Below, piece by piece: positions 3,339-48,315 of a stretch of DNA of 48,315 nt. A program made the translations under genes and the position numbers. Under the pieces are notes generated by a model. The model made no database searches and had not been told where the DNA came from. It saw only the letters and a list, made by a program, of their open reading frames with translations. Origin of the DNA: Escherichia phage ES; sequence record OR466728.1; one strand, written 5' to 3'. Position 1 is the first letter of the stretch. Each line of letters starts with the position of its first letter.

Positions 3339-3358
3339 GCCCCTAAATGGGGCTTTTT
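3339..3358 (+). terminator. rho-independent terminator
   Basis: GCCCC/GGGGC stem, TAAAT loop, 5 T. Confidence 0.55.
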
Positions 3359-3373
3359 ATTGGAGCAAATAAA

Positions 3374-4645
3374 ATGGTAAAAGCAGATTCATACGCCACG
3401 CAATTTCTTGGTGGCTCCAGTGATGGTAGCGAGATTTACGGGCACTTTGGCAACACGTATCTTACACCTCCTTTCGCTGATTCACTGTACGCATCAAACT
3501 CAATTGTACGCCGCATCGTCGACACCATACCGGAGACAGCAATCGCCGCAGGTTTCCATATCGATGGTATTGATAACGAAGGTGAATTCTGGTCCAGGTG
3601 GGATTACCTGAAGGTTAACGAGTCAATCTCTGACGCATGGTCATGGGCGAGGTTATTTGGCGGCTCTGCAATTGTGGCTATCGTTAAGGACAATCGTGCG
3701 CTAACTAGCCCGGTACGTGAAGGCGCGGAACTTGAATCACTTCGCGTTTATGAGCGTAGCCAGGTAAGAGTTCAGACTAAGGAGGAAAACCCTCGCAATG
3801 TGCGATTCGGTAAGCCATTAACGTATCGCATCACGCCAGAAGGTGGCGCCATGTTTTATGATGTGCACTACTCGCGAGTTCACATTATTGATGGCGAGAA
3901 GATTCCTAGTTCATTGCGTCGCGGTAATGACGGGTGGGGTGCTAGCGTTCTGGTTCCTGACCTGCTTGAATCAATCAAGGATTATCAGACGTGTGAGAAA
4001 CTGGCAACTCAGTTATTGCGCCGCAAGCAGCAGGCGGTGTGGAAGGCTAAAGGCCTTGCTGAACTGTGTGACGACGCGGAAGGTTTTGGTGCGGCGAGGT
4101 TGAGGCTTGCCCAGGTTGATGATAACTCTGGCGTTGGTCGCGCGATTGGTATCGACGCTGAAGCTGAAGAGTACAGCGTTCTTAACTCGGATATTGGTGG
4201 GATTGATGGATTCCTCGATAAGAAGTTCGACAGAATTGTTGCTCTGAGCGGTATCCATGAAATCATTCTCAAAGGTCGTAACGTTGGCGGGTTGTCATCA
4301 AGCCAGAATACAGCGCTAGAGACTTTCCACAAGCTAATCGACCGCAAGCGCAATGAGGAGTTACTTCCAGTGCTTGGTTTCTTAATCCCATTCATCACAA
4401 CCGAGCAGGAATGGTCAGTTGAGTTTAACCCTCTAGCTCAGGAATCGAAAAAGGACCGAGCTGAAATACTGAAGAATAACGTTGATTCAATAGCCGCCCT
4501 CATCACTAACGGCGTAATGGATGCTGATGAAGCACGAGATACCTTGCGCGCATTAGCCCCAGAGGTTAAGATTGGTGAGGGTTCGATTGCAAATGAGCAG
4601 CCCGCTCAGGAAGAATCACCAAAAGAGGAGCCTGCAATTGAATAA
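3374..4645 (+). CDS. portal protein (putative)
   Basis: 423 aa from ATG 3374 (RBS GGAG); large ORF directly after terL; call rests on gene order and size. Confidence 0.55.
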   Translation: MVKADSYATQFLGGSSDGSEIYGHFGNTYLTPPFADSLYASNSIVRRIVDTIPETAIAAGFHIDGIDNEGEFWSRWDYLKVNESISDAWSWARLFGGSAIVAIVKDNRALTSPVREGAELESLRVYERSQVRVQTKEENPRNVRFGKPLTYRITPEGGAMFYDVHYSRVHIIDGEKIPSSLRRGNDGWGASVLVPDLLESIKDYQTCEKLATQLLRRKQQAVWKAKGLAELCDDAEGFGAARLRLAQVDDNSGVGRAIGIDAEAEEYSVLNSDIGGIDGFLDKKFDRIVALSGIHEIILKGRNVGGLSSSQNTALETFHKLIDRKRNEELLPVLGFLIPFITTEQEWSVEFNPLAQESKKDRAEILKNNVDSIAALITNGVMDADEARDTLRALAPEVKIGEGSIANEQPAQEESPKEEPAIE

Positions 4646-4665
4646 TAAAGGTGAGGAGAATTGGG

Positions 4666-5781
4666 ATGTATAAGAATCGCTTTGATACAGCAACATTCAA
4701 AGCCACTATCGACGAGAACGGATTTCTCGTTGATACACCAGTAGTGGCAAGGTTGGGTGTTCAGGTTTATTACATGGAGGATGGCTCAGTCGTTCGCGAA
4801 TTCAGGCCAGCAGAAGAGGTGTTTAAAGAGGAGTCTCTAGCCAGCTATCAGGGTAAGCCAATGACTCTGGACCACGTATTCGTAAACTCTGATAACGCTA
4901 AAGATGTGGTTGTTGGCTCGGTAACTGGTAAAGCGGAGGCACTTGGCAGTACAGTTATTGCGCCAATTGTTGTTTACTCCCAAGAGGCAATCGACGAAGC
5001 TCGAGCTGGTAACGCCAAGGAATTATCCGTCGGTTACTCGGCAGTTCTTGATGAAACTCCAGGTTGGGGCGACCCGGCAACTGGTAAGTACATTCTTAGG
5101 ACTGACAACACGCAGGGTTTGGACATACCCGCTGACTGGCAAGAATTCGACGCAATACAGCGAGACATTAAGGTAAACCATTTAGCTATGGTGTTCAGTG
5201 GTAGGGCTGGAATTGCTAAGCTAAATATGGACGGGCAGCAAGAAAACCCGTATACTGACAACGTTGATTTAAATACTAAGGAAAACAAAATGACAGTTAA
5301 GATTAAGATTGACTCTGTTGAAGTTGAAGTGTCTAAAGAAGTTGCAGACCATATCTCCAAGATTAACTCTGCTGTTGAAGCGCAGAAAGCCAAGGTCGAC
5401 TCCATTGAAGCTGAGCGTGATGCGCTTAAGGCTAAAGTTGATGCAATGCCAGCAGAAATCGAGAAAGCAGTTGCTAAAGCGAAAGCAGACGCAGACGCGC
5501 TCGCAGCTTTGGTTGCTGTTGCTGCTGAAGCTGGTGTTAAAGCTGATGGCCTGGATGCTAAAGGCATTAAGGTAGCTTACGTTAAAGAAGTCTCTGGTCT
5601 TGATGTTTCTGAGAAGTCTGACGCATACATCGACGCAGCGTTCGACATTGCCAAAGAATCTGATAAAATGGCTGAAGTACGTAAAGCGACTACCGCTTCC
5701 GATAAATCTGACAAGTCCGACAAGGCTGATAATATCGCTGACCTTGACCCGCGTGCTTGCCTCAAGAAAATTAAAAAGTAA
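4666..5781 (+). CDS. prohead protease / scaffolding-like protein (putative)
   Basis: 372 aa from ATG 4666 (RBS GAGGAG); N-terminal globular domain plus Ala/Lys/Glu-rich coiled-coil C-terminus typical of scaffolds. Confidence 0.45.
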   Translation: MYKNRFDTATFKATIDENGFLVDTPVVARLGVQVYYMEDGSVVREFRPAEEVFKEESLASYQGKPMTLDHVFVNSDNAKDVVVGSVTGKAEALGSTVIAPIVVYSQEAIDEARAGNAKELSVGYSAVLDETPGWGDPATGKYILRTDNTQGLDIPADWQEFDAIQRDIKVNHLAMVFSGRAGIAKLNMDGQQENPYTDNVDLNTKENKMTVKIKIDSVEVEVSKEVADHISKINSAVEAQKAKVDSIEAERDALKAKVDAMPAEIEKAVAKAKADADALAALVAVAAEAGVKADGLDAKGIKVAYVKEVSGLDVSEKSDAYIDAAFDIAKESDKMAEVRKATTASDKSDKSDKADNIADLDPRACLKKIKK

Positions 5782-5792
5782 GGAGATAGATA

Positions 5793-6296
5793 ATGGCAAT
5801 TCGTTCTGTAGCACTGGCAGGTATGGTAGCTGATACTTCCCTGTATAATATCGATGGCGCTTGTGTAGTTGGCGGCAATGCTCAGGCTCGCATTCAGGTT
5901 GGCACAGCAGTCACTGTCACTCCAGACCCGCTAATCGATGGTCATAAAGTTGTTATCGCAGGTGCTTCAGCAACTCTTCCGGCTTACGGCGTTGTAGTTC
6001 GCTCTAGCTATGAAACTCCTGATGGCGCAGCTCGCGGCCAGGAAGCAGTTAACGTCATGAGTCATGGCCGCATCTGGATGCGCACCAGCCTGGCAGCAAA
6101 GCCAGCTTTCGGCTCTGAGGTTTTTGTAAATGGCTCTGGCGTTGCAGTCGCTGGCCCTGCTAGCGATTCAGTCTTCGCAACTGGCTGGACCTATGCTGGC
6201 GGCTTCGCTACAGCTTACACACCTGGTTTACTTCCGATTACCGAAGAACAATCCGTTGATGGCGCAATCGTAGAAGTTCAGGTTAAGCAAAAGTAA
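5793..6296 (+). CDS. Gly/Ala/Val-rich head accessory (decoration-like) protein
   Basis: 167 aa, RBS AAGGAG, between scaffold and capsid genes, followed by terminator. Confidence 0.35.
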   Translation: MAIRSVALAGMVADTSLYNIDGACVVGGNAQARIQVGTAVTVTPDPLIDGHKVVIAGASATLPAYGVVVRSSYETPDGAARGQEAVNVMSHGRIWMRTSLAAKPAFGSEVFVNGSGVAVAGPASDSVFATGWTYAGGFATAYTPGLLPITEEQSVDGAIVEVQVKQK

Positions 6297-6317
6297 AATA
6301 TCAAAGCTAAATTAAAG

Positions 6318-6337
6318 CCTCCTTCGGGAGGTTTTTT
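6318..6337 (+). terminator. rho-independent terminator
   Basis: CCTCC/GGAGG stem, TTCG loop, 6 T. Confidence 0.6.
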
Positions 6338-6390
6338 ATTGCCTTTTATCTGATAGAATGGTAATCACCACAAATAGTCAGGAGATTCAA

Positions 6391-7851
6391 ATGGAGTTAG
6401 TTGAAATCGCTTCAAATAGCTGCGAAGGACTTGAGGCAAAAGCGAAGGCTTTAATGCCATCATTTCAGCCTTATGACAGTATTATTCTGGTAGGTGACTT
6501 GCCAGTCAGGTGTTTAATGGCGTCTGGAACAGACCTAAGCATTACTGATATCAAGTTCCTAACTTTCGGTAGCCGAGCAAGGCTAATCACTGAAATTAAC
6601 AAGATGATTGCTGATGGTTGGGAGATTTTCGGCGAGCCAAAGGCTGACGCAAACAGATTTGGCACAATTATGACCAAAGGCTTTCAGGGCGCTAAGGGTA
6701 CGGCTGGTGTCGCTGGCCCGCAAGGTCCGCAGGGCGTTCAGGGTTTGCAGGGTCCAGAAGGCCCGCAAGGTCCAAAAGGTAATGATGGCGATGATGGTTC
6801 TCAAGGTGAGCGAGGACCACAAGGTCCGCAGGGTATCCGTGGCGAGCAAGGCGTTCAAGGTCCGCAGGGCATCCAGGGGCCAATCGGCTTAACTGGTGAT
6901 ACAGGTCAGCAGGGGCCAGCTGGTCCAACTGGTGCTACTGGTCCTCGTGGACCTCAAGGTGTGCAAGGTGAGGCTGGTCCTGCTGGCGCTACAGGTCTGG
7001 AATTTAAAGGCGCATGGGCTCCAGGTATCGAATACAAAGCAAACGACGCAGTGGCTTATAACGGTTCAACATGGTTTGCTGTGACTGGAAATACAGACGA
7101 GACACCAGGGACGGGAACATCATGGCAGGTAATGGCATCACAAGGTTCTCGCGGACCAGCCGGACCAGAAGGCCCGCAAGGTGATGTTGGCCCGCAAGGT
7201 GAGCAAGGAATTCAAGGACCAATCGGAGCAACTGGACCATCTGGACCTCAGGGCGCAAAAGGTGATACAGGAGACACTGGACCAGCAGGACCAGAAGGAC
7301 CACAAGGTTTAACTGGACCAGCCGGACCGCAAGGCATTCAAGGACCAGCTGGTGTTCGAGGTGCTACTGGTGCAACTGGTGTAAACGGAGCTAATGGCGC
7401 CACAGGACCGCAAGGGCCAGCTGGACCAAATGGTGATTCAGGTCTTAATTACACATATCAGAAATGGTCAAACGTAGCAAATGGCGTTGGGTATGTAACA
7501 ATCCCCGGGATGCCTAATACACAAATAGGAGTTAACAGGAATTCTGCCGGAGCAATTGTGTACACTCTCTATAGTACTGGTGGAACCGTTAGGTATCTTG
7601 ATTGGCGCGCTGAGATACCATCATATGATACAAATGCAATAACCACGGCTGCTGGCACGGCGACAACACCAAGCTCTGCTGGTGTAATAGCAACGATGAA
7701 TACCGTTTTATATAATGGGTTAAGATCAGTCAAATTTATAATTAAGGATTGGGGCGCATCAAGGATTGCTGTAATTGAATGTTACCAACACGGAAGGGCT
7801 AACTCAGACGCGAGGCCTGTTACTATCGAGATGCGCTCATTCTCTTACTAA
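6391..7851 (+). CDS. collagen-like (Gly-X-Y) repeat protein
   Basis: two long uninterrupted G-X-Y tracts (about 6679-6997 and 7141-7453) flanked by globular N- and C-terminal domains; RBS CAGGAG. Confidence 0.8.
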
Positions 7852-7876: not shown

Positions 7877-7904
7877 TTGCTACACCTGAAAACTCGTGTA
7901 TAAT
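7877..7904 (+). promoter_or_regulatory. sigma70-type promoter (TTGCTA -16 nt- TATAAT) for the capsid gene
   Basis: near-consensus -35 and perfect -10 with 16-nt spacer, 38 nt upstream of ATG 7942. Confidence 0.5.
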
Positions 7905-7941: not shown

Positions 7942-8886
7942 ATGGCTATTAAGTTTGACGCTGAACAAGCGAAAATCACTGCTCACCTAGAGCAGATGGG
8001 CGTAGATAAAGCTGACGCCGCTGGCATCTGGACCGTCAAGCAACTGACACAGACCCTGAAGCGCAACTACGAGCGTGAATATACCGACAACTCTGTTGTT
8101 AATATCTTCCCGATCAGTAACGAAATCCCTGCTTCTGCTAAATACTTCGAGTACCCAGAATTCGATGGCGTTTCAATCGCTCAGATTATCGCAGACTACT
8201 CCGATGACCTGCCGCTTGTTGACGCGTTCATGACTGAGAAACAAGGTAAAGTGTTCCGCTTCGGTAACGCATTCCTGATCTCCATCGATGAAATCGCAGC
8301 TGGTGCAGCAACTGGTCAATCTCTGTCTGCTCGTAAACAGGCTCTGGCTTTTGAAGCTCACGACAACCTGCTTGACAAACTGGTATGGTTTGGCTCTGCT
8401 CCGCACGGTATTAACAGCGTATTTAATACCCCCAACGCAAGCCGCGTAACCCCGAACGCATGGGTTGATGCCGCTGCTGCTGTTAACGATATCACTCGAA
8501 TGATTGATGCTATCGAAACTAACACGCAGGGTATGCATACTGCTACTGATATCATTCTGCCAGCCTCCGCTCGCCGCTTGATGCAGCAACTGGTTCCTGG
8601 TACTACGATTAGCTATGCTCAGCTGTTCGCAACTAACAATACCAGCGTAAATATTCGCTATTTGCAGTTCCTGGACGATATTGATGGCGCTGGCACTAAA
8701 GCAGCTCTGGCGTTTGAAAAAGACCCGCTGAACATGAGTATTGAAATTCCTGAGGCAACCCACGTATTGCCGGGTCAGCCGAAAGATTTGCATTTCAAAT
8801 ACCCTGTTACTTCCAAGTCTACAGGTCTGGTTGTTTACCGACCTCTGACTCTTGCTATCATGTCTGGCATCGAAATTACCGCATAA
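7942..8886 (+). CDS. major capsid protein (putative)
   Basis: 314 aa, own strong promoter and terminator, RBS AAAGGAAG, position in head module. Confidence 0.6.
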   Translation: MAIKFDAEQAKITAHLEQMGVDKADAAGIWTVKQLTQTLKRNYEREYTDNSVVNIFPISNEIPASAKYFEYPEFDGVSIAQIIADYSDDLPLVDAFMTEKQGKVFRFGNAFLISIDEIAAGAATGQSLSARKQALAFEAHDNLLDKLVWFGSAPHGINSVFNTPNASRVTPNAWVDAAAAVNDITRMIDAIETNTQGMHTATDIILPASARRLMQQLVPGTTISYAQLFATNNTSVNIRYLQFLDDIDGAGTKAALAFEKDPLNMSIEIPEATHVLPGQPKDLHFKYPVTSKSTGLVVYRPLTLAIMSGIEITA

Positions 8887-12590: not shown

Positions 12591-15563
12591 ATGGCAACTA
12601 ACGAAATTGCTGGTATCACGCTAGCCGTCGACGTAGCTCAGGTCGATAAGGGTACGCAATCCTTACAGAAATTCAGGCAAGCAAACGAGCAAGCTGCAAC
12701 AGGCATTAATAGCTTCGTCAACGCCGAACTTGTAGCCAAGACTCAAGCAAGGGACACTGCAAGGCAGCTTGAGGAGCAGCGCAAATCTTTCGCATCACTT
12801 CAGCAAGCCATAGACCCAACCGCTGCTAAATTCCTGAAGTTGCAGAAAGCAGCAACAGATTTGGACAAAGCATTTGAATCCGGGATAGTTCCTGATGATG
12901 AATTCTTCAGGCTTGGCTCTGTTATTGAAACTCAAATCAATAAGCTAAACAGGTCTAAAGCCGCTCTTAGCGAAGAAGGCAGGGCTGCACTACAGGCATC
13001 AATAGATAAAGAGAAAGCAACAACAGCAGCGCAAAAGTTCATTCAATCTCTTGAGAACGAGGCGAATGCAGCAAGCCTGACAAGGACTGAACTTCTTCAG
13101 CTTAAGGCTGCTCAGCTAGGAGTTAGTGACCAGGCTGCACCGATTATCGACAGGATTGGAAAGGCTGCCGAGGCATCTGCGGTACAATTGCAGAAGCAAA
13201 GCTCCGCTTTTGTTAAGTCTGGGCTTAGTGCCGGTCAATACAAGCAAGCAATACGACAGCTACCAGCTCAGATTACAGATATCGGAACATCTCTTGCTGG
13301 CGGCATCCCAATCTGGCTCATTGCAATTCAGCAGGGCGGTCAGATTAAGGATAGTTTTGGTGGCATTGGCAATACAGCAAGGTTTGCATTAGCAGCCATT
13401 AATCCATTAACGGCAGTTGTTGGGACTTTGGGATTGGCTCTTGGTGCTCTTGGTGTTGCAGCTTATCAGGCCGACAAGAATACTCGCGGACTAGCATCAA
13501 CGATAACACTGGTTGGCAACTCAACTATTACATCAACAGCGCAGATAAATCAGGTTGTTGATGGAATCGAGAGCTCAACGCTAGCCACGCGCGGACTTAT
13601 CCAGGAGATAGCTAACAGCCTGGTAGCAAACGGCAATCTAACGCTTACACAGATAGACAAAATAACTAAGGCAACCGCGCAGTGGGCAACTGTAACATCA
13701 ACTGACTCGAAAACTATTCTTGGGTACTTTGACCAGATTACAAAGGACCCAATTCAAGGTCTGATTGCACTCGATAAGCAGTTCAACTTCCTTCAGTCAG
13801 GGCAGTTAAAATACATTGAGAATATCAGGAAGACCGCTGGAGAAACGGAGGCTGTAACAGCAGCTACAGAGCTATTCGCTAACGTTATGGAAAACAGGCT
13901 CGCGGACGTTGCGCTAAGCCTTAACCCGCTTGAAAGTGCATGGAATAGCTTCAGGAAGTTTGTAAGTGAGATCTGGGATGATATAAGCAAAAGGACGCTT
14001 GGGGCGCTTAACTTAATAACTGACGTTGTTGCGGGTACGATTGAGCAGATAAGGTCGTTAATAAACTCCGGTGATATCCTATTAGGCGAGTTTGCAATAG
14101 CCGCAACCAAGACTCTTCAGTCAATCCCTGGACTTGGGGATTTAGGCAATGAGGCAATCGCTGAACAGCAAAAGATTGTTGATGCAGCCAAGAAGCAAAA
14201 TGAGGAGTTAGCAAAAAGCATAGCTGAGCGAGATGCTAGAATCAGGAAGGGTGAGCTTGGTTATGTTGAGAGTAACAATAACACCAACCCGAGCGGCAAC
14301 AAAACATCAACTGATAAGGAGTTCGGAGCAAGGAAGAAGGCGCTAGCTGATGAGCTTGATACAATAAAGAAAGCAAGGAGCGAGAGGAATAAGGCAGTAA
14401 AAGAAGAGAGGGATTTAACTTTATCTTATGAATCTGGTGTTCTTGCTCTTCAGGCTCAGTTAAAGGTTTTACAAGAGCACAAGACGATAAACGATGTAAT
14501 AAGTAACGAACGAAAGCAACTATTCCAGGAGGAAGCAAAGTTTGCAATACTTGAGCAAAGAAAGGCCGATGGCAGCTTAACTAAGTCCCAAGCTAAGCTA
14601 CTTGCTCAGAAGAATATCATTCTTGAACAGGCTAAACAGAAGGCTGAGCTTGGTGACCAGATTGTGCTTCAGGAGAGGTCAAACAAGTTACTTGATGACA
14701 ACCTCAAGAAGACTGTGCAGATTAAGAATGAGGCAAATAATGTTTCGCTTGCTGCTAATTTATCTGACAGGGAGAAGCAGAGGGCAAAAGAGCTTCAGGC
14801 TCTACAGTCCAATCAGGTAAACAAAGGTGGCTCTGTTGATGATACTGACTTTCAGGCTTTACTCGAAGCTAGGCGTAATTTCTATGCTCAAGAGGATGCG
14901 CTACGTGAAAACTGGCTCGCTGGTGTGCAGTCATCCTTCGCAAATTGGGCAGAGAGCGCGACAGATGCTTTCTCAATTGCTGGTGAATTAACAACTTCTG
15001 TCTTTACAGGAATTACGGAGCAGATTACTAGCCTTGTGACAACTGGCACGGCAGACTTCAGGAGTTTTACCGTTGAAATCCTGAAACAGATTGCGAAGAT
15101 TGCTACTCAGCTTCTGATTGTGAAGGCGATTGAGTCAAGCTTAAGTAGCTTTGGTGGCACTGGCGGCGCAATTGGTTCAATTGGTAGCGCTCTTGGCTTT
15201 GCTGGCGGCGGTTATACTGGTGATGGTGGGAAGTATCAACCTGCCGGAACTGTGCACCGCGGTGAGTTTGTATTCACAAAAGAAGCAACAAGCAGAATTG
15301 GCGTTAAGAATCTGTATAAGCTAATGCGAGGTTATGCAAATGGCGGTGCTGTTGGTGGGCCTTCTGGATATGCTAATGGTGGAGTTGTTGGCGGTACTAA
15401 TGTCAGTGTTGGTGGTGTGACGGTTAACGTAAGCTCTGGATTTAGTAGCGGTAATGATGCTAAGGCGATAGAATCTGGAGTCAAGGTTATCGTTGCTGAG
15501 GAAATCAGCAAGTCATTCCAGCAGGGCGGCAGAGCCTTTGCTTATCTGAGGGGTTACAACTAA
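12591..15563 (+). CDS. tail tape measure protein
   Basis: 990 aa, Ala/Gln/Lys-rich coiled-coil body, Gly-rich C-terminal region, follows the G/GT chaperones. Confidence 0.8.
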   Translation: MATNEIAGITLAVDVAQVDKGTQSLQKFRQANEQAATGINSFVNAELVAKTQARDTARQLEEQRKSFASLQQAIDPTAAKFLKLQKAATDLDKAFESGIVPDDEFFRLGSVIETQINKLNRSKAALSEEGRAALQASIDKEKATTAAQKFIQSLENEANAASLTRTELLQLKAAQLGVSDQAAPIIDRIGKAAEASAVQLQKQSSAFVKSGLSAGQYKQAIRQLPAQITDIGTSLAGGIPIWLIAIQQGGQIKDSFGGIGNTARFALAAINPLTAVVGTLGLALGALGVAAYQADKNTRGLASTITLVGNSTITSTAQINQVVDGIESSTLATRGLIQEIANSLVANGNLTLTQIDKITKATAQWATVTSTDSKTILGYFDQITKDPIQGLIALDKQFNFLQSGQLKYIENIRKTAGETEAVTAATELFANVMENRLADVALSLNPLESAWNSFRKFVSEIWDDISKRTLGALNLITDVVAGTIEQIRSLINSGDILLGEFAIAATKTLQSIPGLGDLGNEAIAEQQKIVDAAKKQNEELAKSIAERDARIRKGELGYVESNNNTNPSGNKTSTDKEFGARKKALADELDTIKKARSERNKAVKEERDLTLSYESGVLALQAQLKVLQEHKTINDVISNERKQLFQEEAKFAILEQRKADGSLTKSQAKLLAQKNIILEQAKQKAELGDQIVLQERSNKLLDDNLKKTVQIKNEANNVSLAANLSDREKQRAKELQALQSNQVNKGGSVDDTDFQALLEARRNFYAQEDALRENWLAGVQSSFANWAESATDAFSIAGELTTSVFTGITEQITSLVTTGTADFRSFTVEILKQIAKIATQLLIVKAIESSLSSFGGTGGAIGSIGSALGFAGGGYTGDGGKYQPAGTVHRGEFVFTKEATSRIGVKNLYKLMRGYANGGAVGGPSGYANGGVVGGTNVSVGGVTVNVSSGFSSGNDAKAIESGVKVIVAEEISKSFQQGGRAFAYLRGYN

Positions 15564-18108: not shown

Positions 18109-21100
18109 ATGGCACAAATGGTCAAAACAAATACGGAGCTATGTGATATGGCACAAGATATTAAGATTTATGGGAGTAAGGGCGGTAGCCAGAAACAGAG
18201 ACAGCCTGTTGAGCAACCTGACAACCTGGTATCTGTAAACAAGGTTAAAGTACTTTTGGCGGTAGCGGATGGTGAGGTTGATAGTTCTTTTTCACTTCGT
18301 GATTTGTACCTGGCTGATGTTCCCGTTCAGAATGCAGATGGTACTTTAAACTACGAAGGAGTCACGGCTGAATTTAGGCCGGGAACTCAAGATCAGGATT
18401 ATATTCCTGGACTTGACGGTGCTAACTCGGAGGTTCAGGTTAGCCGAGAAATCACCAACAGCACTCCTTACATTATTGCCGTTAACAACAGTCAGCTATC
18501 GGCAATTAGGGTTAAGTTGTTTTGGCCAAGACTGATTAGCCAAGAAAGTAATGGCGACCTTAATGGCACTACGTGCGAGTACGCGATTGACTTATCTGTT
18601 GATGGCGCAACTTACACTGAATACACGCGCGGCGTAGCTAATGGCAAGACAACTAGCGGATACGACAGAAGTATCAGGGTTAACCTTCCAGCGGAGTTCT
18701 CTAGCGCACTGGTAAGGATTCGAAAGATTACGGCAGATTCAGAAAGTTCTACGCTGGTTAACGACATGCAAATTACGACCTATCAGGAAGTAATTGATGC
18801 TAAATTCCGCTACCCACTTACAGCGCTGGTTTACGTTGAGTTCAGTTCTGACCTCTTCCCTAACGGAATCCCGACGATTTCAATCAAGAAGAAGTGGAAG
18901 TTGATTCGCGTTCCAACTAACTACAACCCAGAGACAAGGACTTACAGCGGAACCTGGAACGGCACCTTTAAGATGGCGTATTCCAATAACCCGGCGTGGG
19001 TTCTTTACGACTTGGTGACGAATCAGCGTTACGGACTTGACCAGCGAGAGCTTGGCATTACTATTGATAAGTGGGGTCTGTATGAGGCGGCGCAATTCTG
19101 TGACCAGATGGTTCCAGATGGTAAGGGTGGAGTTGAGCCGCGCTACCTGTGTGATGTTGTCATTCAGCAGAAAGTTGAAGCATATCAGGTAATCCGTGAT
19201 ATTTGCTCTATCTTCCGTGGGCTGACATTCTATGACGGCGAGCAGATAGGGATTGTTGTCGATAAGCCGCGTCAACCATCGTACGTATTCACCAATGACA
19301 ACGTTGTTGATGGATTGTTCAACCGTACATTTGGTAGCGATAAGTCACTTTACACGGTTGCCAACGTTCAGTTTGATGACGTTGAAAACTCATACCAACA
19401 GGATGTTGAGCCAGTATTCGAGTTAGAGGCAACAAGGCGTTTTGGTTACAACCCGGTCGACCTTACAGCTATTGGATGTACTCGCAGGAGTGAGGCAAAC
19501 CGCCGCGGGCGCTGGTTATTAAAGACGAACATTCGCAGCGAGACTATTAGTTTCACTACTGGTCTGGAAGGTATGATTCCAATGATTGGTGAGGTTATTG
19601 CAGTTAATGACCAGGCATGGTCTAGCAACTACACCCTTAACCTTTCTGGTCGTATCGAGTCAGTAAGTGGGTTGCAAGTTTTTGTGCCATTTAAGATTGA
19701 TGCTACTGCTGGCGACAGGATTCTAATAAACAAGCCTGATGGAATGCCAGAGTACAGGACCATTGCATCTGTATCTGAAGATGGTATGACGCTGCAACTT
19801 AATACAGCGTTTAGCTTTACTCCTCAGCCTGACACAGTATTTGCGATTGATAAGGAAAATCTTGCTCTTCAGCAATATGTTGTGACCGGGATTCAAAAAG
19901 CAGACAGCGATGGAGACGATGCGTTCGGTTACAGCATTACGGCAGTCGAGTACGACCCGAATAAATACGACGAAATTGATTACGGCGTAAACATTCAGGA
20001 TAGGCCATCGTCAATCGTTGAACCTGACACGCTACTTGCCCCAGAAAATGTTCAGGTGAGCAGCTACAGCAAGGTTGTGCAGGGTTTATCAGTTGAAACA
20101 ATGGTAATCACCTGGGACAAAGTTCAGTACGCCAAGACTTACACGGTACAGTGGCGTAAGGAGAACGGAAACTGGATTAACGTACCGCGCACAGCAAACA
20201 CAGAAGTTGATATTGAAGGTATTTATGCTGGTATTTATCAGGTTCGCGTGAGGGCTGTTTCTGATACTGAAAACGTATCCGCATGGTCTGACATTGTTTC
20301 AGCAAGCCTAACTGGTAAAATTGGAACGCCGTCTGAGCCTACGGTAATCACAGCTTCAGATGATGAAATATTCGGCATTAGGGTTAAGTGGGGATTTCCT
20401 GAAAACTCAGCCGATACGTCATACACTGAATTGCAGCAAGTAGCCGACAATGGTGATGGTACTTACTCACCAGAGAACGCCAGTTTGTTAACGCTAGTTC
20501 CTTACCCGGGTTACGAGTATTGGCACACTACATTGCCGGCAGGAAAGGTTATCTGGTACAGGGCGCGACTGATTGACAAGATTGGTAACGTCTCACCATG
20601 GACTGATTTTGTAAGGGGTATGGCAAGCGATGATGTGTCGTCAATCATTGGTGATATTAAGGTTGATATAGAAAACTCAGATGGGTTCAAGTATCTCCAA
20701 CAGAATGCCATTGAGTCAAACGGAGCTATTCAGGCGCAAGCGGAATCAATAATTGAGAACGCCCTGGCTAATGATGGTGACGTGCGTAGAATGACGAAGG
20801 AAAACGGCAAGAGGAAGGCCGAATTTGTTCAGGCTGTGAATCTTATCGCCGATGAAGAAAGGGCTCGCGTAGAGGCTCTGACGCAGCTTAAAGCGCAGAT
20901 TGATGATGAGATTGTGGCTTCGTTGACAAGGATTGATACGGCGCTAGCGGAAGAAACGCAAGCAAGGACCACTGCGGACACTGCTTTATCTGCAAGGCTC
21001 GGTGAGAATGAAGCTGCTTTAAATGAGAAGCTGGATACTTACGTTACAGCTGATTCAATTGGTGCGCAGTACGGCATTAAGCTGGGTCTTACTTACAATG

Positions 21101-21534
21101 GGGTTGAGTACAATTCAGGGATGAGCATGGAACTAACCGGATCTGGTGGCAATGTTCGCAGTCAGGTCATATTTGATGCTAACAGGTTCGCAATCAGTAA
21201 TGGGGTTAGTTCTGGCTCCGGTCAGTGGTCATTGCCTTTCGTGGTTGAGAATAATCAGGTATTCATTCAAAGCGCAGTGATTCAGGATGGTTCAATCACT
21301 AACGCGAAGATTGGTAACCGGATTCAATCTAATAACTACGTGGCTGGTTCTCAGGGTTGGGCCATTGATAAGTCAGGCAGTGCGGAACTTAACAATGCAA
21401 CTGTAAGGGGTAGTCTGTACGCAAGTAACGGCAACTTTGCGTTTAACGGAACCAACAACACTGTTCAGATTAACAATAATGGAATTACAGTTAATTTACC
21501 GAATGGTGGAAGGGTTGTAGTTGGAGTGTGGTAA
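18109..21534 (+). CDS. J: host specificity protein J (central tail fibre / tip attachment)
   Basis: 1141 aa; segments such as VPTNYNPETRTYSGTWNGTFKMAYSNNPAWVLYDLVTNQRYG match recalled lambda J; start could be ATG 18148. Confidence 0.9.
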   Translation: MAQMVKTNTELCDMAQDIKIYGSKGGSQKQRQPVEQPDNLVSVNKVKVLLAVADGEVDSSFSLRDLYLADVPVQNADGTLNYEGVTAEFRPGTQDQDYIPGLDGANSEVQVSREITNSTPYIIAVNNSQLSAIRVKLFWPRLISQESNGDLNGTTCEYAIDLSVDGATYTEYTRGVANGKTTSGYDRSIRVNLPAEFSSALVRIRKITADSESSTLVNDMQITTYQEVIDAKFRYPLTALVYVEFSSDLFPNGIPTISIKKKWKLIRVPTNYNPETRTYSGTWNGTFKMAYSNNPAWVLYDLVTNQRYGLDQRELGITIDKWGLYEAAQFCDQMVPDGKGGVEPRYLCDVVIQQKVEAYQVIRDICSIFRGLTFYDGEQIGIVVDKPRQPSYVFTNDNVVDGLFNRTFGSDKSLYTVANVQFDDVENSYQQDVEPVFELEATRRFGYNPVDLTAIGCTRRSEANRRGRWLLKTNIRSETISFTTGLEGMIPMIGEVIAVNDQAWSSNYTLNLSGRIESVSGLQVFVPFKIDATAGDRILINKPDGMPEYRTIASVSEDGMTLQLNTAFSFTPQPDTVFAIDKENLALQQYVVTGIQKADSDGDDAFGYSITAVEYDPNKYDEIDYGVNIQDRPSSIVEPDTLLAPENVQVSSYSKVVQGLSVETMVITWDKVQYAKTYTVQWRKENGNWINVPRTANTEVDIEGIYAGIYQVRVRAVSDTENVSAWSDIVSASLTGKIGTPSEPTVITASDDEIFGIRVKWGFPENSADTSYTELQQVADNGDGTYSPENASLLTLVPYPGYEYWHTTLPAGKVIWYRARLIDKIGNVSPWTDFVRGMASDDVSSIIGDIKVDIENSDGFKYLQQNAIESNGAIQAQAESIIENALANDGDVRRMTKENGKRKAEFVQAVNLIADEERARVEALTQLKAQIDDEIVASLTRIDTALAEETQARTTADTALSARLGENEAALNEKLDTYVTADSIGAQYGIKLGLTYNGVEYNSGMSMELTGSGGNVRSQVIFDANRFAISNGVSSGSGQWSLPFVVENNQVFIQSAVIQDGSITNAKIGNRIQSNNYVAGSQGWAIDKSGSAELNNATVRGSLYASNGNFAFNGTNNTVQINNNGITVNLPNGGRVVVGVW

Positions 21535-21541
21535 ATGATTA

Positions 21542-21566
21542 GGCCCCTTTCGGGGCCTTTTCTTTT
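21542..21566. terminator. bidirectional terminator between convergent J and minus-strand genes
   Basis: GGCCCC/GGGGCC stem, TTTC loop, T-rich on plus strand. Confidence 0.55.
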
Positions 21567-22527
21567 AGTAGAAGTTTGGTATGAATGGTAGAGCCATTGA
21601 TATGTTTGTGTCGAATGGGAATTGGGCTCCCGTCTGCGTTGAGTAGTTCCCTATCACAGTGCCTGGAACTGCCCTTACGGCACCACCAGACATGCATATT
21701 CCCTTGTACCTTAAGTTGTTATACCCTCCAGTAACTCTTGTTGTAGCGCCGCACCTGAGCAGTGGGAAGAACCCTCCATTTATTGACTGGAAACCGTTAG
21801 TCATTTGTATAAAGCCACCAAGCACAAACGGTCGCCTAACGCTGGAAAAGACAATCTGTCCAGAACTATTAGACATTGTGAGTCCTGGGCCAGCTACTGG
21901 AGGGTCATTCCTGAATATCACTAACTGTACGTAAGTACTTGCTGCAACGTCATCTATGCCGCTGTAGTTTATGTTGCGGCACCAAATTGTATTACCGTCG
22001 CTCTCCAGAGAAACGTTTGGGTTATCCCATTTACCAAATGGAATCCCACTGACTGGTAGTGAGGCGGCGCCGTTAACCTGTATTCCACCAACCCATGCCG
22101 CAGACATTAACCGCGAATTGCTTGAAATTGCCAAAAAGTCAGTTGAGTTCTCAACCAGTATTCCTGGGCTTGATGAAGACGAGGCTGGGAGTATTTCAAA
22201 GCAATTTCCAGCAAAGTCAATTATACGACCTCTTGCGCCATTGAAGTCACTAAGCGTTATCCTGCCAGTTCCGTCATTTACCTTCTGGAACCCGTTCATA
22301 TAATAAACTTCAGGTACAACATCATAAGCGTCAACGTGCACAGCCTTTGTTGGAAGGCAGAATGCTGTTGATCCTGGGGACATGGTTAAACCAAAATCCC
22401 ATGATGATGCTGGCGTCGAAAGTCCATTGGTATTTATTGAGCCAGTCACAGCGGGCGCTCTTAATCCTGCCGTTATTTCCATAGGTGGCCTTCCGTCGTT
22501 GAGGTCTATCAATATACCCTGTGGCAT
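21565..22527 (-). CDS. hypothetical Gly/Asn/Ser-rich protein; candidate receptor-binding protein
   Basis: 320 aa from ATG 22527 (RBS AAGGAG); TAATG coupling with the upstream lipoprotein gene; function inferred. Confidence 0.35.
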   Translation of the reverse strand: MPQGILIDLNDGRPPMEITAGLRAPAVTGSINTNGLSTPASSWDFGLTMSPGSTAFCLPTKAVHVDAYDVVPEVYYMNGFQKVNDGTGRITLSDFNGARGRIIDFAGNCFEILPASSSSSPGILVENSTDFLAISSNSRLMSAAWVGGIQVNGAASLPVSGIPFGKWDNPNVSLESDGNTIWCRNINYSGIDDVAASTYVQLVIFRNDPPVAGPGLTMSNSSGQIVFSSVRRPFVLGGFIQMTNGFQSINGGFFPLLRCGATTRVTGGYNNLRYKGICMSGGAVRAVPGTVIGNYSTQTGAQFPFDTNISMALPFIPNFY

Positions 22528-22772
22528 TATTTCCACTCCTTAGACCCGTGATCTGCAACTGAACCGCCATAACCTCCACCAGCCTTGCTCTCAATACCAG
22601 CGTAGCGCACATCAACTTCACCAGCCGGTACAATCACGCCACCTTTCCATTTAGCCACGCATACACCGTTTGCTTTCGTTGCACACCATCCGTCAGGACG
22701 CGGAGCAGAAGAGCAACCCACCATTATGATTGCTGCTGCTGCGATGATTGAAAGTTTGATTAAGTTAGTCAT
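22527..22772 (-). CDS. lipoprotein, candidate superinfection-exclusion (Llp/Cor-like)
   Basis: 81 aa from ATG 22772 (RBS AAGGAA); signal peptide with lipobox IMVGC; small Cys-containing mature protein. Confidence 0.5.
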
Positions 22773-26176: not shown

Positions 26177-26199
26177 AAGCCCCTTTCGGGGCTTTTTTT
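26177..26199. terminator. bidirectional terminator
   Basis: AAGCCCC/GGGGCTT stem flanked by A-run upstream and T-run downstream, between convergent genes. Confidence 0.6.
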
Positions 26200-28732
26200 A
26201 TGCGAGAGAAACTCTTGAATTTGCAAATATCATGGCATCCCTTTGGTTATCAAACTGCACAACAAAGTAATCAGCAAGACTTAACACCATACCAGTTAGT
26301 CCATCAAGGTTGATATGCAGGTTTGCAGTGCCAGATACTGAAGCCTGAGCAACTCCAAATGTATGAACCCACTTACCGCCCTCAGTGAACACTTTCCCTA
26401 AAGATGCAGTACCAAAAATACTGATAGCACCATCTGCACCACCTTGAATCCTGTTTGCAGAGATACCCCAAACGTACCATTTGCCGGAAGTTATATTAAA
26501 GCCACCATTTATCAATTCGTACTGAGCCGCACCAGCCAATTCGTAGTATCCAGATGATTGCGAGTGTATACCCCTTGTATCAGAACCTTCACTTGCCGAC
26601 CCTGTTCCACCAAAGTTGTTCCCACCAGTACCAAAAGGCCTCCTGACTAAAACAGTTCCGGAATCGGGATTAAAAACTCGACCCTTAGTAACATATCCTC
26701 TAACAGATAAGTCAGATGTACCCGTTATCTTGGCTGTCTGTGATACCAGTGACTCAACTATAACGTTTGATGTTGAAGAGCCATTCAGGTATGCATCCTT
26801 AGCAAAAATAATACTGTTCGAATCAAGAGAGAAACTTTGATGCCCATCAGCGTTATCAAACCTGCAACCGTAAGTAACAAGGTTTGAGTTAGACAACTCA
26901 ATGTTATTAATGTAGGAGTGCTCAGCAAAGAAAACAGACGTATCAATAAGCTTCAAAACCCTTGGTAGCTCAGCACCCTCACCTACGTTAATTGCCCCAC
27001 CAGTCGCTATTGCTTCAAACCATACATTTGACAAACCACAAGGCGAGGTCGGGCAATCTCCAGGTTTATTCTTTAACCTTATACCACCTCCAGCAGAGGC
27101 CTCCATTATTGAATCCCTAATCCACCATCCACCAATCCCTCCAGCACCAGGGTTAGTTGCACTACTTGTGCTTGTCGCATCTAGCATTACTGAATATTGA
27201 GAGATTGTATCTGAGTGGTACCCGTATAAAGTGTCCGCTCCTATATGCATTTCGTCATGAGCTTTGGCTCGATACCCGTAATTCGCATTTCTAATACTTA
27301 CGTTTCTGTAGGTATTTCCAATGTTGCCAGCATTTTTCCTTATACCAACATCCAGGTCATTGAAGTAAAGCCTATCCAATACAACCCTTCCAGCATAAGG
27401 GTCATCCGGGAATTGAAAGCCGTTATTACCTTGTATTGCAGTACCTGTAAACTGCAAATCCGATAAATGCTTTTGCCTCCAGTGCGGAACCGATAGCGTT
27501 GAGGTGAGTCCGGTTTCAAAAGGTTTAACACTTATTACGGTATTATATCCAGAGCCTGATATGTTCCTGCCAGCAAAGGAGTAGTTATTACTCTCATAAG
27601 TTCCCGGGCTTATAACTACCGACCCGCCATCGCCAGCGGCTTCTATTGCTGAAGATATTGAGCCGCTATAGCTTGATGTGCTTTTTGAATCTGTATTTAA
27701 AATTGATGACACCTCACCCTTTGAGTAAACATCAAGGTTGGTTCTTGCCACGGACTTATCTGCAATGTCTGAAAGATTCAATGATTTTTGAAACGTCTCG
27801 GATTTTGAGTAAACATCAAGCAACCCCCTAACCCTTGACGCGCTTGATCCACCAGTTGCAGCATCACCGCCAGGCAAGCTTAGTACTTCCCTTACATAAA
27901 AAACCCTAGATCCAGTCGCACCAGAAATTGTGACATCTGCAATCCTAAAATTTGAGTTTGACCCAGTAGACGGAGATAACCTTAATACTTTAGCCGAATT
28001 AACACCCCTAGTTGCAATAACATCAATACAAATAGGAGTTGTTGAAACCGGAAACATTGAACTAATTTCTTTTGGGGTGTTTAACATATTCCCAGGTGTG
28101 CACTGATAACGACCTCCGGAATAAAATTGCATTGTTTGCCAATCTAAAGAGGTAAGTAATGGCGTTGTCGTGCTACCTATTCCGTGATTAGCAAAGTAAG
28201 CAACAGCCGCTGTATTTCCAGCCGCATTTATTGCTTCAACCGTCCTGTTATATGAATTTTGTGCGTTAGTGCTTGCACCAACTGCGGTCGCTGCACTTTC
28301 AGCAGCAGCAATCTGACTAGCTAACGCCTCCGCAGCTCCGGTAGTTGACTGAGTTGCCAGTTGTTCAAAACGAGGCCAATCAAAAGTATCTTGACCAATA
28401 AATTGCAGTAGACTTTCAATAGAAGTCTCTTTTGACTGGTAGTAACGCAATGTTTCCGCAACATCCTGTGCCAACCCCTGAACAGTAATTCCATCATGAG
28501 CAAGAATTGCGTAACCAGTACCAGCGGGAACAGTTTCAGAACTTGGATTATAAACATTAACCTGAGTATCGCTGATGATTTCAGAGATGGTGTAAATTTT
28601 CAGAGGGCTGGTTTTGAAAATGATAGTAGCACCTACACGAATCAGCGTAAGCGGCGCTTTCCATGTTGTACCGACACCAGTTACCTCTCCATTCGCGGCC
28701 AGTGACGCTGTTCCTAAGTCATAAATTGCCAT
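26198..28732 (-). CDS. tail fibre / tailspike-like protein
   Basis: 844 aa from ATG 28732 (RBS GGAGA; ORF-track start 28762 is GTG); Gly/Ser/Thr/Asn-rich repetitive beta-type composition. Confidence 0.5.
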   Translation of the reverse strand: MAIYDLGTASLAANGEVTGVGTTWKAPLTLIRVGATIIFKTSPLKIYTISEIISDTQVNVYNPSSETVPAGTGYAILAHDGITVQGLAQDVAETLRYYQSKETSIESLLQFIGQDTFDWPRFEQLATQSTTGAAEALASQIAAAESAATAVGASTNAQNSYNRTVEAINAAGNTAAVAYFANHGIGSTTTPLLTSLDWQTMQFYSGGRYQCTPGNMLNTPKEISSMFPVSTTPICIDVIATRGVNSAKVLRLSPSTGSNSNFRIADVTISGATGSRVFYVREVLSLPGGDAATGGSSASRVRGLLDVYSKSETFQKSLNLSDIADKSVARTNLDVYSKGEVSSILNTDSKSTSSYSGSISSAIEAAGDGGSVVISPGTYESNNYSFAGRNISGSGYNTVISVKPFETGLTSTLSVPHWRQKHLSDLQFTGTAIQGNNGFQFPDDPYAGRVVLDRLYFNDLDVGIRKNAGNIGNTYRNVSIRNANYGYRAKAHDEMHIGADTLYGYHSDTISQYSVMLDATSTSSATNPGAGGIGGWWIRDSIMEASAGGGIRLKNKPGDCPTSPCGLSNVWFEAIATGGAINVGEGAELPRVLKLIDTSVFFAEHSYINNIELSNSNLVTYGCRFDNADGHQSFSLDSNSIIFAKDAYLNGSSTSNVIVESLVSQTAKITGTSDLSVRGYVTKGRVFNPDSGTVLVRRPFGTGGNNFGGTGSASEGSDTRGIHSQSSGYYELAGAAQYELINGGFNITSGKWYVWGISANRIQGGADGAISIFGTASLGKVFTEGGKWVHTFGVAQASVSGTANLHINLDGLTGMVLSLADYFVVQFDNQRDAMIFANSRVSLA

Positions 28733-28756
28733 TGTGTAAAGTCTCCATTTGTAAAA

Positions 28757-28774
28757 TAGCACGAATTGCTAAAG
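28757..28774 (+). promoter_or_regulatory. dyad box copy 6, orphan (plus orientation between two minus-strand genes)
   Basis: exact TAGCACGAATTGCTAAAG; no plus-strand gene or good -10 downstream; overlaps 5' leader of the tail fibre gene. Confidence 0.4.

Positions 28775-48160: not shown

Positions 48161-48315
<155 letters not shown>

Follow-up and report, generated by a model that had tools for sequence, protein, structure and literature searches.

We found that a collagen-like gene in the head module of Escherichia phage ES probably encodes an accessory head fibre, attached to the capsid through a duplicated capsid-binding domain, and not a tail fibre. The gene (positions 6391..7851, + strand) was analysed in a 48,315-nucleotide stretch of sequence record OR466728.1 (the whole stretch is called the window here). 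It encodes a protein of 486 amino acids plus stop (48.9 kDa, pI 4.9). An initial annotation, made from the sequence alone, had suggested a capsid-attached trimeric fibre because of the location of the gene. That suggestion is now supported by homology of the N-terminal domain to a capsid anchor (DUF1737), by the same gene position in 14 of the 14 genomic contexts read, by the presence of an orthologue (Rogue1 gp21) in virions, by an apparent swap of the collagen payload for a head-fibre module (PF11133) in a relative, and by a separate set of tail-fibre genes in ES.

The N-terminal domain (amino acids 1-96) is a predicted tandem pair of DUF1737-like units. Unit 1 (6391..6534, + strand; amino acids 1-48) has a beta-alpha-beta-beta arrangement and is followed by unit 2 (6535..6678, + strand; amino acids 49-96). 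The AlphaFold2 model of the domain (pLDDT 78.6) has strand 2-8, helix 11-21 and strands 26-33 and 39-47 in unit 1, and strand 50-59, helix 62-74 and strand 90-96 in unit 2. We split the family alignment at residue 49 and compared the halves by hhalign. Half 1 matched half 2 (97.8%, E 9e-13), and the profiles of both halves matched amino acids 1-60 of gp84 from phage phi24B (97.2%, E 3.5e-11 for half 1; 94.3%, E 9.5e-8 for half 2). The family consensus, EGWQPYGSI..AG, differs little from EGWQPYGSALISTAG in gp84. Of 14 family N-domains, 13 had DUF1737 (PF08410) matches, which lay in the first or the second half depending on the member. Those above the DUF1737 gathering score, with 25-47 bits, were in P0008, P0015, P0123, P0125, P0131, P0134, P0173 and P0184. 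A profile search of 1.84 billion representatives recovered 76 proteins. The domain was mostly at the extreme N-terminus of these proteins, and the payloads that it carried were varied.

By cryo-EM, the domain of gp84 that was "previously annotated as DUF1737" was shown to bind the capsid (bioRxiv 10.64898/2026.04.10.717836). One helix and three antiparallel strands make up this domain (amino acids 2-57), and in phi24B it forms a hexamer in the pore or depression at the centre of the hexon, on the exterior of the capsid (bioRxiv 10.64898/2026.04.10.717836).

The gene order, read from Pfam and PHROG matches, placed the collagen-like gene where it had been reported to lie, between the scaffold and decoration genes and the gene for the major capsid protein (MCP). 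The order is portal (3347-4645), DUF2213 protease/scaffold (4651-5781), a 167-amino-acid Phage_cement protein that is a capsid cement or decoration protein (5793..6296, + strand; PF22758 E 1.7e-21, PF23982 E 3.6e-13), the collagen-like gene, and the MCP (7942..8886, + strand; PF09950 E 2.5e-38, PHROG 264 E 1.4e-87). The MCP is the presumed binding partner of the anchor. The cement gene was kept in all relatives read and forms the left border of a variable slot between it and the MCP gene. An anchor-bearing gene was in this slot in 14/14 contexts and was directly 5' of the MCP gene in 13 of them; in the other (AHP42) one small open reading frame (ORF) lay between. That is, the anchor-sharing relatives were all in the head slot, and orthologues in a tail-fibre module, which would have spoken against a capsid-attached fibre, were not seen among these contexts.

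The slot has sharp edges. Its left edge is marked by an intrinsic terminator (6314..6338, + strand) with a 9-bp stem, a UUCG loop and a U-tract (-12.3 kcal/mol, z = -2.4 by RNA folding). This terminator is kept in relatives, is identical in Rtp, and has an annotated terminator as its equivalent in AHP42. The right edge is a sigma-70-type promoter for the MCP gene (7877..7904, + strand; TTGCTA-16-TATAAT, 10/12 consensus positions). Its -10 region, CTCGTGTATAAT, is kept in four of five phages aligned, with phiEB49 keeping only the core TGTATAAT, and the AHP42 record annotates a promoter at the equivalent site. In Rtp, the terminator directly abuts the MCP promoter and there is no gene between them. 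In the stretch from the terminator to the start of the collagen-like gene (6339-6390) we found no canonical sigma-70 promoter; the MCP gene has its own promoter. Presumably the collagen-like gene depends on read-through of the terminator or on an unrecognised or phage-specific promoter.

The contents of the slot differ among relatives. No gene occupies the slot in Rtp (read directly) or in G8, TR1-3, CY1 and Rao1 (inferred from record spans). The slot is about 0.85 kb in phiEB49 (read) and in BEK6, IMM-001 and phiA2-1 (from spans), about 1.4 kb in DTL, about 1.6 kb in ES, Rogue1 and phiKP26 and, by span, in L027, L029 and L030, and about 2.3 kb in e4/1c, where there are two extra small ORFs. 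In AugustePiccard, L014, L028 and L031 it is about 2.4 to 4.4 kb and holds further genes, for example for a GDSL/SGNH esterase. In phiEB49 gp53 and its DTL homologue, the same anchor (hhalign 98.6%, E 1e-15) is joined to a stalk that is not collagen.

The most informative of these relatives is P0130, a 260-amino-acid protein encoded in the slot of a T1-like metagenomic contig (L031 4001-4783). P0130 has the tandem DUF1737 anchor and a match to PF11133 (Phage_head_fibr) of 35 bits, which is above the gathering score. By its domain content, P0130 represents a natural exchange of the payload, with anchor and slot retained, and its head-fiber module is the strongest contextual argument that the ES protein is a head fibre. 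The ES protein itself had no match to PF11133 at E <= 0.1.

An orthologue of the ES protein is present in virions. Rogue1 gp21 (L010 2419-3864) occupies the same slot and is orthologous over its full length, with 34% end-to-end identity to the ES protein (E 2e-59). Matrix-assisted laser desorption/ionization mass spectrometry (MALDI-MS) of CsCl-purified Rogue1 virions identified gp21, with 59.5% coverage, in a band of 52.7 kDa; the two other bands analysed were the major head protein and the major tail protein (PMC3496638). Absence from virions, which would have counted against a capsid-attached fibre, was thus not what was found for this orthologue. The Rogue1 authors gave gp21 no function and pointed out that the JK06 homologue had wrongly been called DNA polymerase I (PMC3496638). 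They also observed a segment of gp21, bordered by GPVGP repeats, that the JK06 homologue lacks, and they suspected that it was an intein (PMC3496638). The difference is more simply explained by variation in the length of the collagen stalk through recombination between Gly-X-Y repeats.

The rest of the ES protein would form a long fibre. Collagen tract 1 (6679..7002, + strand; amino acids 97-204) has 36 uninterrupted Gly-X-Y triplets, and tract 2 (7144..7449, + strand; amino acids 252-353) has 34. At the standard collagen rise of 0.286 nm per residue, these tracts would be about 31 nm and about 29 nm long as triple helices. Gly is at each first position in both tracts. The initial annotation had counted more than 200 residues of such repeats, separated by roughly 48 residues and flanked by globular domains; we counted 210 collagen residues and a spacer of 47, and both flanks (96 and 133 amino acids) were modelled as folded domains. 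The match to Pfam Collagen (PF01391) scored 112.8 bits (cut-off 27.2; E 6.4e-33). Gly-X-Y runs of at least four triplets elsewhere in the window (all six frames) came solely from a poly-G artefact at the 3' end. Because of this score and because there were no other genuine Gly-X-Y runs, we conclude that the repeats are not due to chance. Pro is at 30 of 70 X positions and Gln at 25 of 70 Y positions; among the triplets, GPQ occurs most often. Such a composition, with Pro at X and Gln at Y, is typical of bacterial and phage collagens. The Pro-rich X positions and Gln/Thr-rich Y positions are compatible with a homotrimeric triple helix, and it is from the collagen sequence that trimerisation of the fibre is inferred.

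Between the tracts is a non-collagen knot (7003..7143, + strand; amino acids 205-251) that resembles carbohydrate-binding modules of the CBM5/12 type. The knot is kept in all full-length relatives, with residues G207, Y215, D219, V221 and W245 almost invariant, and precomputed PF02839 matches occur in the same arrangement in many distant collagen proteins. The distal C-terminal domain (7450..7848, + strand; amino acids 354-486, ~133 amino acids) is modelled by AlphaFold2 as a 10-strand beta-sandwich (pLDDT 91.2). This domain is presumed to be both the nucleus for trimerisation and the ligand-binding tip. It is not a jelly roll of the C1q/TNF type. The five-part layout (N-domain, collagen 1, knot, collagen 2, C-domain) is kept in about a dozen full-length relatives that are 33-71% identical in alignment. 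A Pfam scan of the whole protein gave nothing beyond Collagen, CBM_5_12 and a weak DUF1737 match; there were no tail-fibre N- or C-terminal domains. Searches seeded by words gave one close match to the isolated N-domain and none to the isolated C-domain. The full-length query found homologues because the collagen tracts supplied seed words. A Foldseek search of BFVD recovered only the protein's own family.

The C-domain is the most divergent part of the protein among relatives and is also found in unrelated phages. In the T4-like phage protein JS10_0176 (EpJS10_0176, L007 4737-5744), a homologous C-domain (38% identity, E 8e-24) follows a CBM-like knot and a collagen tract. The gene is in the hoc locus beside two Hoc-like genes, and the ~100 amino acids at the N-terminus are unrelated to DUF1737. 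This protein is a candidate for a collagen-like fibre on the heads of T4-like phages. A second homologue of the C-domain (31% identity, E 3e-19) is A5-4_226 from an rV5-like phage. We looked for the anchor in JS10_0176 and A5-4_226 and it was not present in either. Because these C-domain homologues lack the anchor, the design appears to be modular: the anchor sets the position of the protein, and the tip is exchanged horizontally. A protein of podophage PAS7 also resembles the C-domain, in this case that of the relative P0005, as judged by eye from unscored alignments.

We propose the following mechanism for assembly and function of the putative head fibre. Three chains would associate through the C-terminal beta-sandwich, with the C-domain acting as the nucleus of a homotrimer. 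The collagen tracts would then zip from C to N into a triple helix of about 60 nm that is interrupted by the CBM5/12-like knot. Folding of collagen from C to N is established (PMC11923368). The two tandem DUF1737-like units of each chain, homologous to the gp84 domain, would bind the capsid. A trimer has six units and could therefore fill the centre of one hexon, which would reconcile a 3-fold fibre with a 6-fold capsomer. By analogy with members of its Pfam family (E217 gp24 and Pam3 gp6), the cement protein would occupy other sites on the capsid and would therefore be compatible with a fibre at the hexon centre. Fibres projecting from the capsid could touch surface polysaccharides weakly and reversibly through the beta-sandwich and the CBM-like knot. 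Such contacts with glycans would raise the chance of productive contact by the tail, as has been proposed for T4 Hoc, T5 pb10, the phi29 head fibres and SPP1 gp12. The gene lies exactly between the cement-gene terminator and the MCP promoter and is a dispensable, exchangeable cassette. We consider the slot dispensable because it is empty in Rtp and, from record spans, in other relatives.

A bolder version of this proposal is possible, and we offer it tentatively, as one that we doubt more than we believe. The tandem DUF1737 domain would be an adaptor that turns a 3-fold fibre, of collagen or another trimeric type, into a 6-fold ligand for hexons. In T1-like phages, all 60 hexons would be coated with ~60-nm fibres, with up to 180 chains and a mass comparable to that of the capsid shell. 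The tips would be exchangeable with those of tail-fibre and Hoc-locus proteins, making the capsid a second swappable receptor-binding organelle, and the slot would be a dedicated site of recombination for head-display cassettes with fibres of the collagen or the phi29 type.

Several points weigh against attachment to the capsid, or against parts of the proposed mechanism. The position of the ES protein and its orthologues on a T1-like capsid is inferred. The finding that DUF1737 binds the capsid of phi24B comes from a 2026 preprint. We looked for kinship between the phi24B MCP (PF13252) and the ES MCP (PF09950) and there was no detectable sequence similarity, and the anchoring residue of gp84, Tyr42, is not evidently conserved in the ES anchor. 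For these two reasons, binding of the ES protein to hexons is an extrapolation. In addition, the match of the ES protein itself to PF08410 (amino acids 56-88) is 14.3 bits, under the gathering score of 24, and the motif in its unit 1 has diverged (PSFQPYDS). In each of the 21 complete proteins with a collagen stalk the anchor had two units, and collagen was never found with a single-unit match, a correlation that is biased because the sequences are related and were found with the tandem profile. This co-occurrence backs the idea that 3 x 2 = 6 units, but is suggestive only. The knot matched PF02839 with 21.2 bits (E 2.9e-4), under the gathering score of 26.2, and the fold of the C-domain is generic; neither points to a ligand. 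The distal half of the protein is also found in the tail-fibre cluster of the rV5-like phage A5-4. Lastly, the short slot protein of AHP24-type phages is not listed among the seven bands identified by MS in those phages, a result that is absence of evidence only.

The protein could be attached to the capsid and have a main role that is not adhesive. It might form an acidic (pI 4.9) steric or electrostatic coat that prevents aggregation, reduces non-productive adsorption to debris or vesicles, binds mucus or shields the capsid. T4 particles without Hoc aggregate, and it has been proposed that decoration proteins serve to keep particles dispersed (PMC7602432). The authors of the phi24B study propose a role for gp84 that is related to mucus (bioRxiv 10.64898/2026.04.10.717836). 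The generic fold of the C-domain and the sub-threshold CBM5/12 match fit a coat as well. However, the distal module is shared horizontally with proteins of tail-fibre clusters and diverges fast, as receptor-binding tips do, and the presence of GDSL/SGNH esterase genes in the slot of four relatives suggests an interaction with surface glycans. We think it unlikely that a coat is the main role.

Attachment to a different ring with six-fold or twelve-fold symmetry seems improbable to us. Candidate rings are the connector or neck, where the protein would resemble whisker or collar fibres such as T4 fibritin, and the hexamers of the tail tube. Six DUF1737 units per trimer would suit any 6-fold ring, the MS of Rogue1 virions gives no position in the virion, and the anchor may have a different partner, given that the phi24B and ES MCPs are unrelated by sequence. 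Nonetheless, the sole partner of DUF1737 that has been defined by experiment is the hexon pore of an MCP, all 14 contexts had the gene beside that of the MCP and not beside genes for a connector or tail tube, and the slot paralogue P0130 carries the head-fiber module of phi29.

The label that the family usually carries implies a lateral tail fibre, with a collagen stalk on the tail tip or baseplate and the C-domain as its receptor-binding tip. This label has several sources. PHROG 5073, which matches the ES protein over its full length (E 4.6e-107), is labelled tail fiber, as are most PHROGs that contain collagen. Phage AN_ECEAS (PP944860, Drexlerviridae; Braunvirinae), which is 100% identical to ES across the 4-kb stretch compared, has the same coding sequence with the depositor's product name "putative tail fiber protein"; the NCBI entry for the exact protein of phage ES reads "hypothetical protein". 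Tail fibres of phages commonly contain collagen repeats (PMC6316719; PMC7344957), and the C-domain homologue A5-4_226 adjoins a large tail fibre gene. But these labels have been propagated by similarity, in the case of the tail-fibre label to collagen repeats, and not by experiment, and the same family has also been labelled "DNA polymerase I". The gene was in the tail module in none of the 14 contexts. The N-domain resembles DUF1737 and not a tail-attachment domain, and the two C-domain homologues outside the family (A5-4_226 and JS10_0176) are without the anchor. ES also already has its own tail-fibre genes: elsewhere in the window are a gene for the tape measure protein (TMP; 12591-15563), the J fibre gene (18109-21534) and a lateral fibre gene (26198-28762). 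We regard a lateral tail fibre as quite improbable.

A non-structural product, either a moron or a factor used only in assembly and encoded in the head operon, would fit the moron-like position between terminator and promoter and the empty slot of several relatives, but it is highly improbable given that gp21 was recovered from CsCl-purified Rogue1 virions with 59.5% peptide coverage and that phiEB49 gp53 is labelled "virion structural protein" by RefSeq.

Our results favour an accessory head fibre over these alternatives, and such a fibre has precedents. The view in the initial annotation that collagen-like proteins of phages are usually tail fibres is broadly true, yet SPP1 gp12 is a published precedent for the capsid. 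In this Bacillus siphophage, gp12 is a collagen-like trimer that is found at hexon centres after expansion and is non-essential. Like the ES protein, gp12 has a Gly-X-Y motif, and its gene (12) is between those for scaffold (11) and MCP (13). The gp12-type position and dispensability were both found for the ES gene. In contrast to the ES protein (486 amino acids, 70 triplets and a tandem anchor), gp12 has 64 amino acids (6.6 kDa), a short central collagen motif, and no DUF1737 anchor, CBM-like knot or globular distal domain. Beyond the Gly-X-Y repeats, the two sequences would not be expected to resemble each other, given the small size of gp12 and its lack of DUF1737.

The comparison with phi24B gp84, a NanS-p-type esterase, is closer for the anchor. 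The anchors are homologous by profile and both proteins have a layout of anchor plus payload. However, gp84 has one DUF1737 unit, forms a hexamer and has an esterase payload that is released by proteolysis, and its gene is near the stx and lysis region of a podophage whose capsid is T=9 and whose MCP belongs to PF13252. The ES protein has two units per chain, a collagen payload and a gene adjacent to that of the MCP in a T1-type siphophage. The proposed ES fibre also resembles phi29 gp8.5 (PF11133), a trimeric, dispensable capsid fibre thought to aid attachment. Unlike the ES protein, gp8.5 has a helical coiled stalk and sits at quasi-3-fold sites through the BIG2 domain of the MCP. T4 Hoc and T5 pb10 are dispensable, located at the hexon centre and proposed to be adhesins, as is the case for the ES fibre we propose; both are monomeric decoration proteins of the Ig-like type. 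The EPcl proteins of E. coli prophages resemble the ES protein in being phage-encoded, trimeric, collagen-like stalks between non-collagen domains. Those proteins, from the work of Ghosh et al. in 2012, reportedly have phage-fibre N- and C-terminal domains and genes in tail modules. In contrast, the ES protein has no phage-fibre domains by Pfam and its gene is in the head module. In the literature on collagen together with Drexlerviridae, T1-like phages or head fiber, we found no paper that describes these proteins as head fibres. Based on these comparisons, the ES protein is most likely a new architecture (tandem DUF1737, two long collagen segments, a CBM-like knot and a swappable tip) within the known class of head decorations.

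The gene call itself is straightforward. A ribosome-binding site, AGGAG (6380..6384, + strand), can be read in the sequence 6 nt 5' of the ATG at 6391. The alternative in-frame ATG at 6358 was rejected because it has no ribosome-binding site. The mislabel "DNA polymerase I" is recurrent in the family. It was traced to JK06 and was criticised in the Rogue1 paper (PMC3496638). PHROG 22681 carries the name "DNA polymerase" and covers the N-domain together with the first part of the collagen.

Some of the other genes in the slot were also characterised. A GDSL/SGNH esterase protein of ~430 amino acids is encoded in the slot at L006 1120-2409, L014 1384-2670, L028 1141-2418 and L031 2621-3913, and the slot esterase of AugustePiccard is annotated "putative head outer capsid protein". 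We looked for the anchor in the AugustePiccard esterase and in the extra ORF of DTL, and there was no similarity by hhalign in either. By analogy with the esterase that phi24B carries on its capsid, the slot esterases may be enzymes displayed on the capsid through a different anchor. In AHP42-type phages (AHP42 gp08 and gp09, L011 2495-3379), a short, 157-amino-acid version is followed by a separate ORF of 124 amino acids. This pair is possibly a split or truncated fibre gene.

Other features of the window are unrelated to the fibre gene. Positions 48162-48315 are a run of poly-G of ~154 nt with a single A at 48239, which is almost certainly an artefact of sequencing or assembly that does not belong to the phage. 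The ES record is 234 bp longer than PP944860, to which it is nearly identical. An ORF of 158 amino acids (875-1351) with an HNH-like motif (HMDGNGLNNSIENL) lies between a small-terminase-like ORF (283-807) and the large terminase (1330-2892) and overlaps the start of the latter. Directly after the J fibre gene, on the opposite strand, is an ORF of 323 amino acids (21565-22536, - strand) that matches PHROG 1265 (E 1.3e-129), a "membrane protein" of the moron/host-takeover category. This ORF might be a gene of the superinfection-exclusion type.

If the ES protein is a head fibre, then a widespread mis-annotation in the Drexlerviridae ("tail fiber protein", "DNA polymerase I") would be corrected. 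The corrected label would matter for the prediction of host range and for the engineering of therapeutic T1-like phages. Two anchor units per chain would be a simple and testable answer to the mismatch between a trimeric fibre and a hexameric capsomer. The DUF1737 capsid anchor would be extended from Stx podophages to a second family of phages, with a different lineage of MCP and a new payload. The natural plug-in site, with its conserved terminator and promoter, together with the anchor domain, could possibly be used for display on capsids. More generally, distal binding modules would move between the head and tail appendages of unrelated coliphages.

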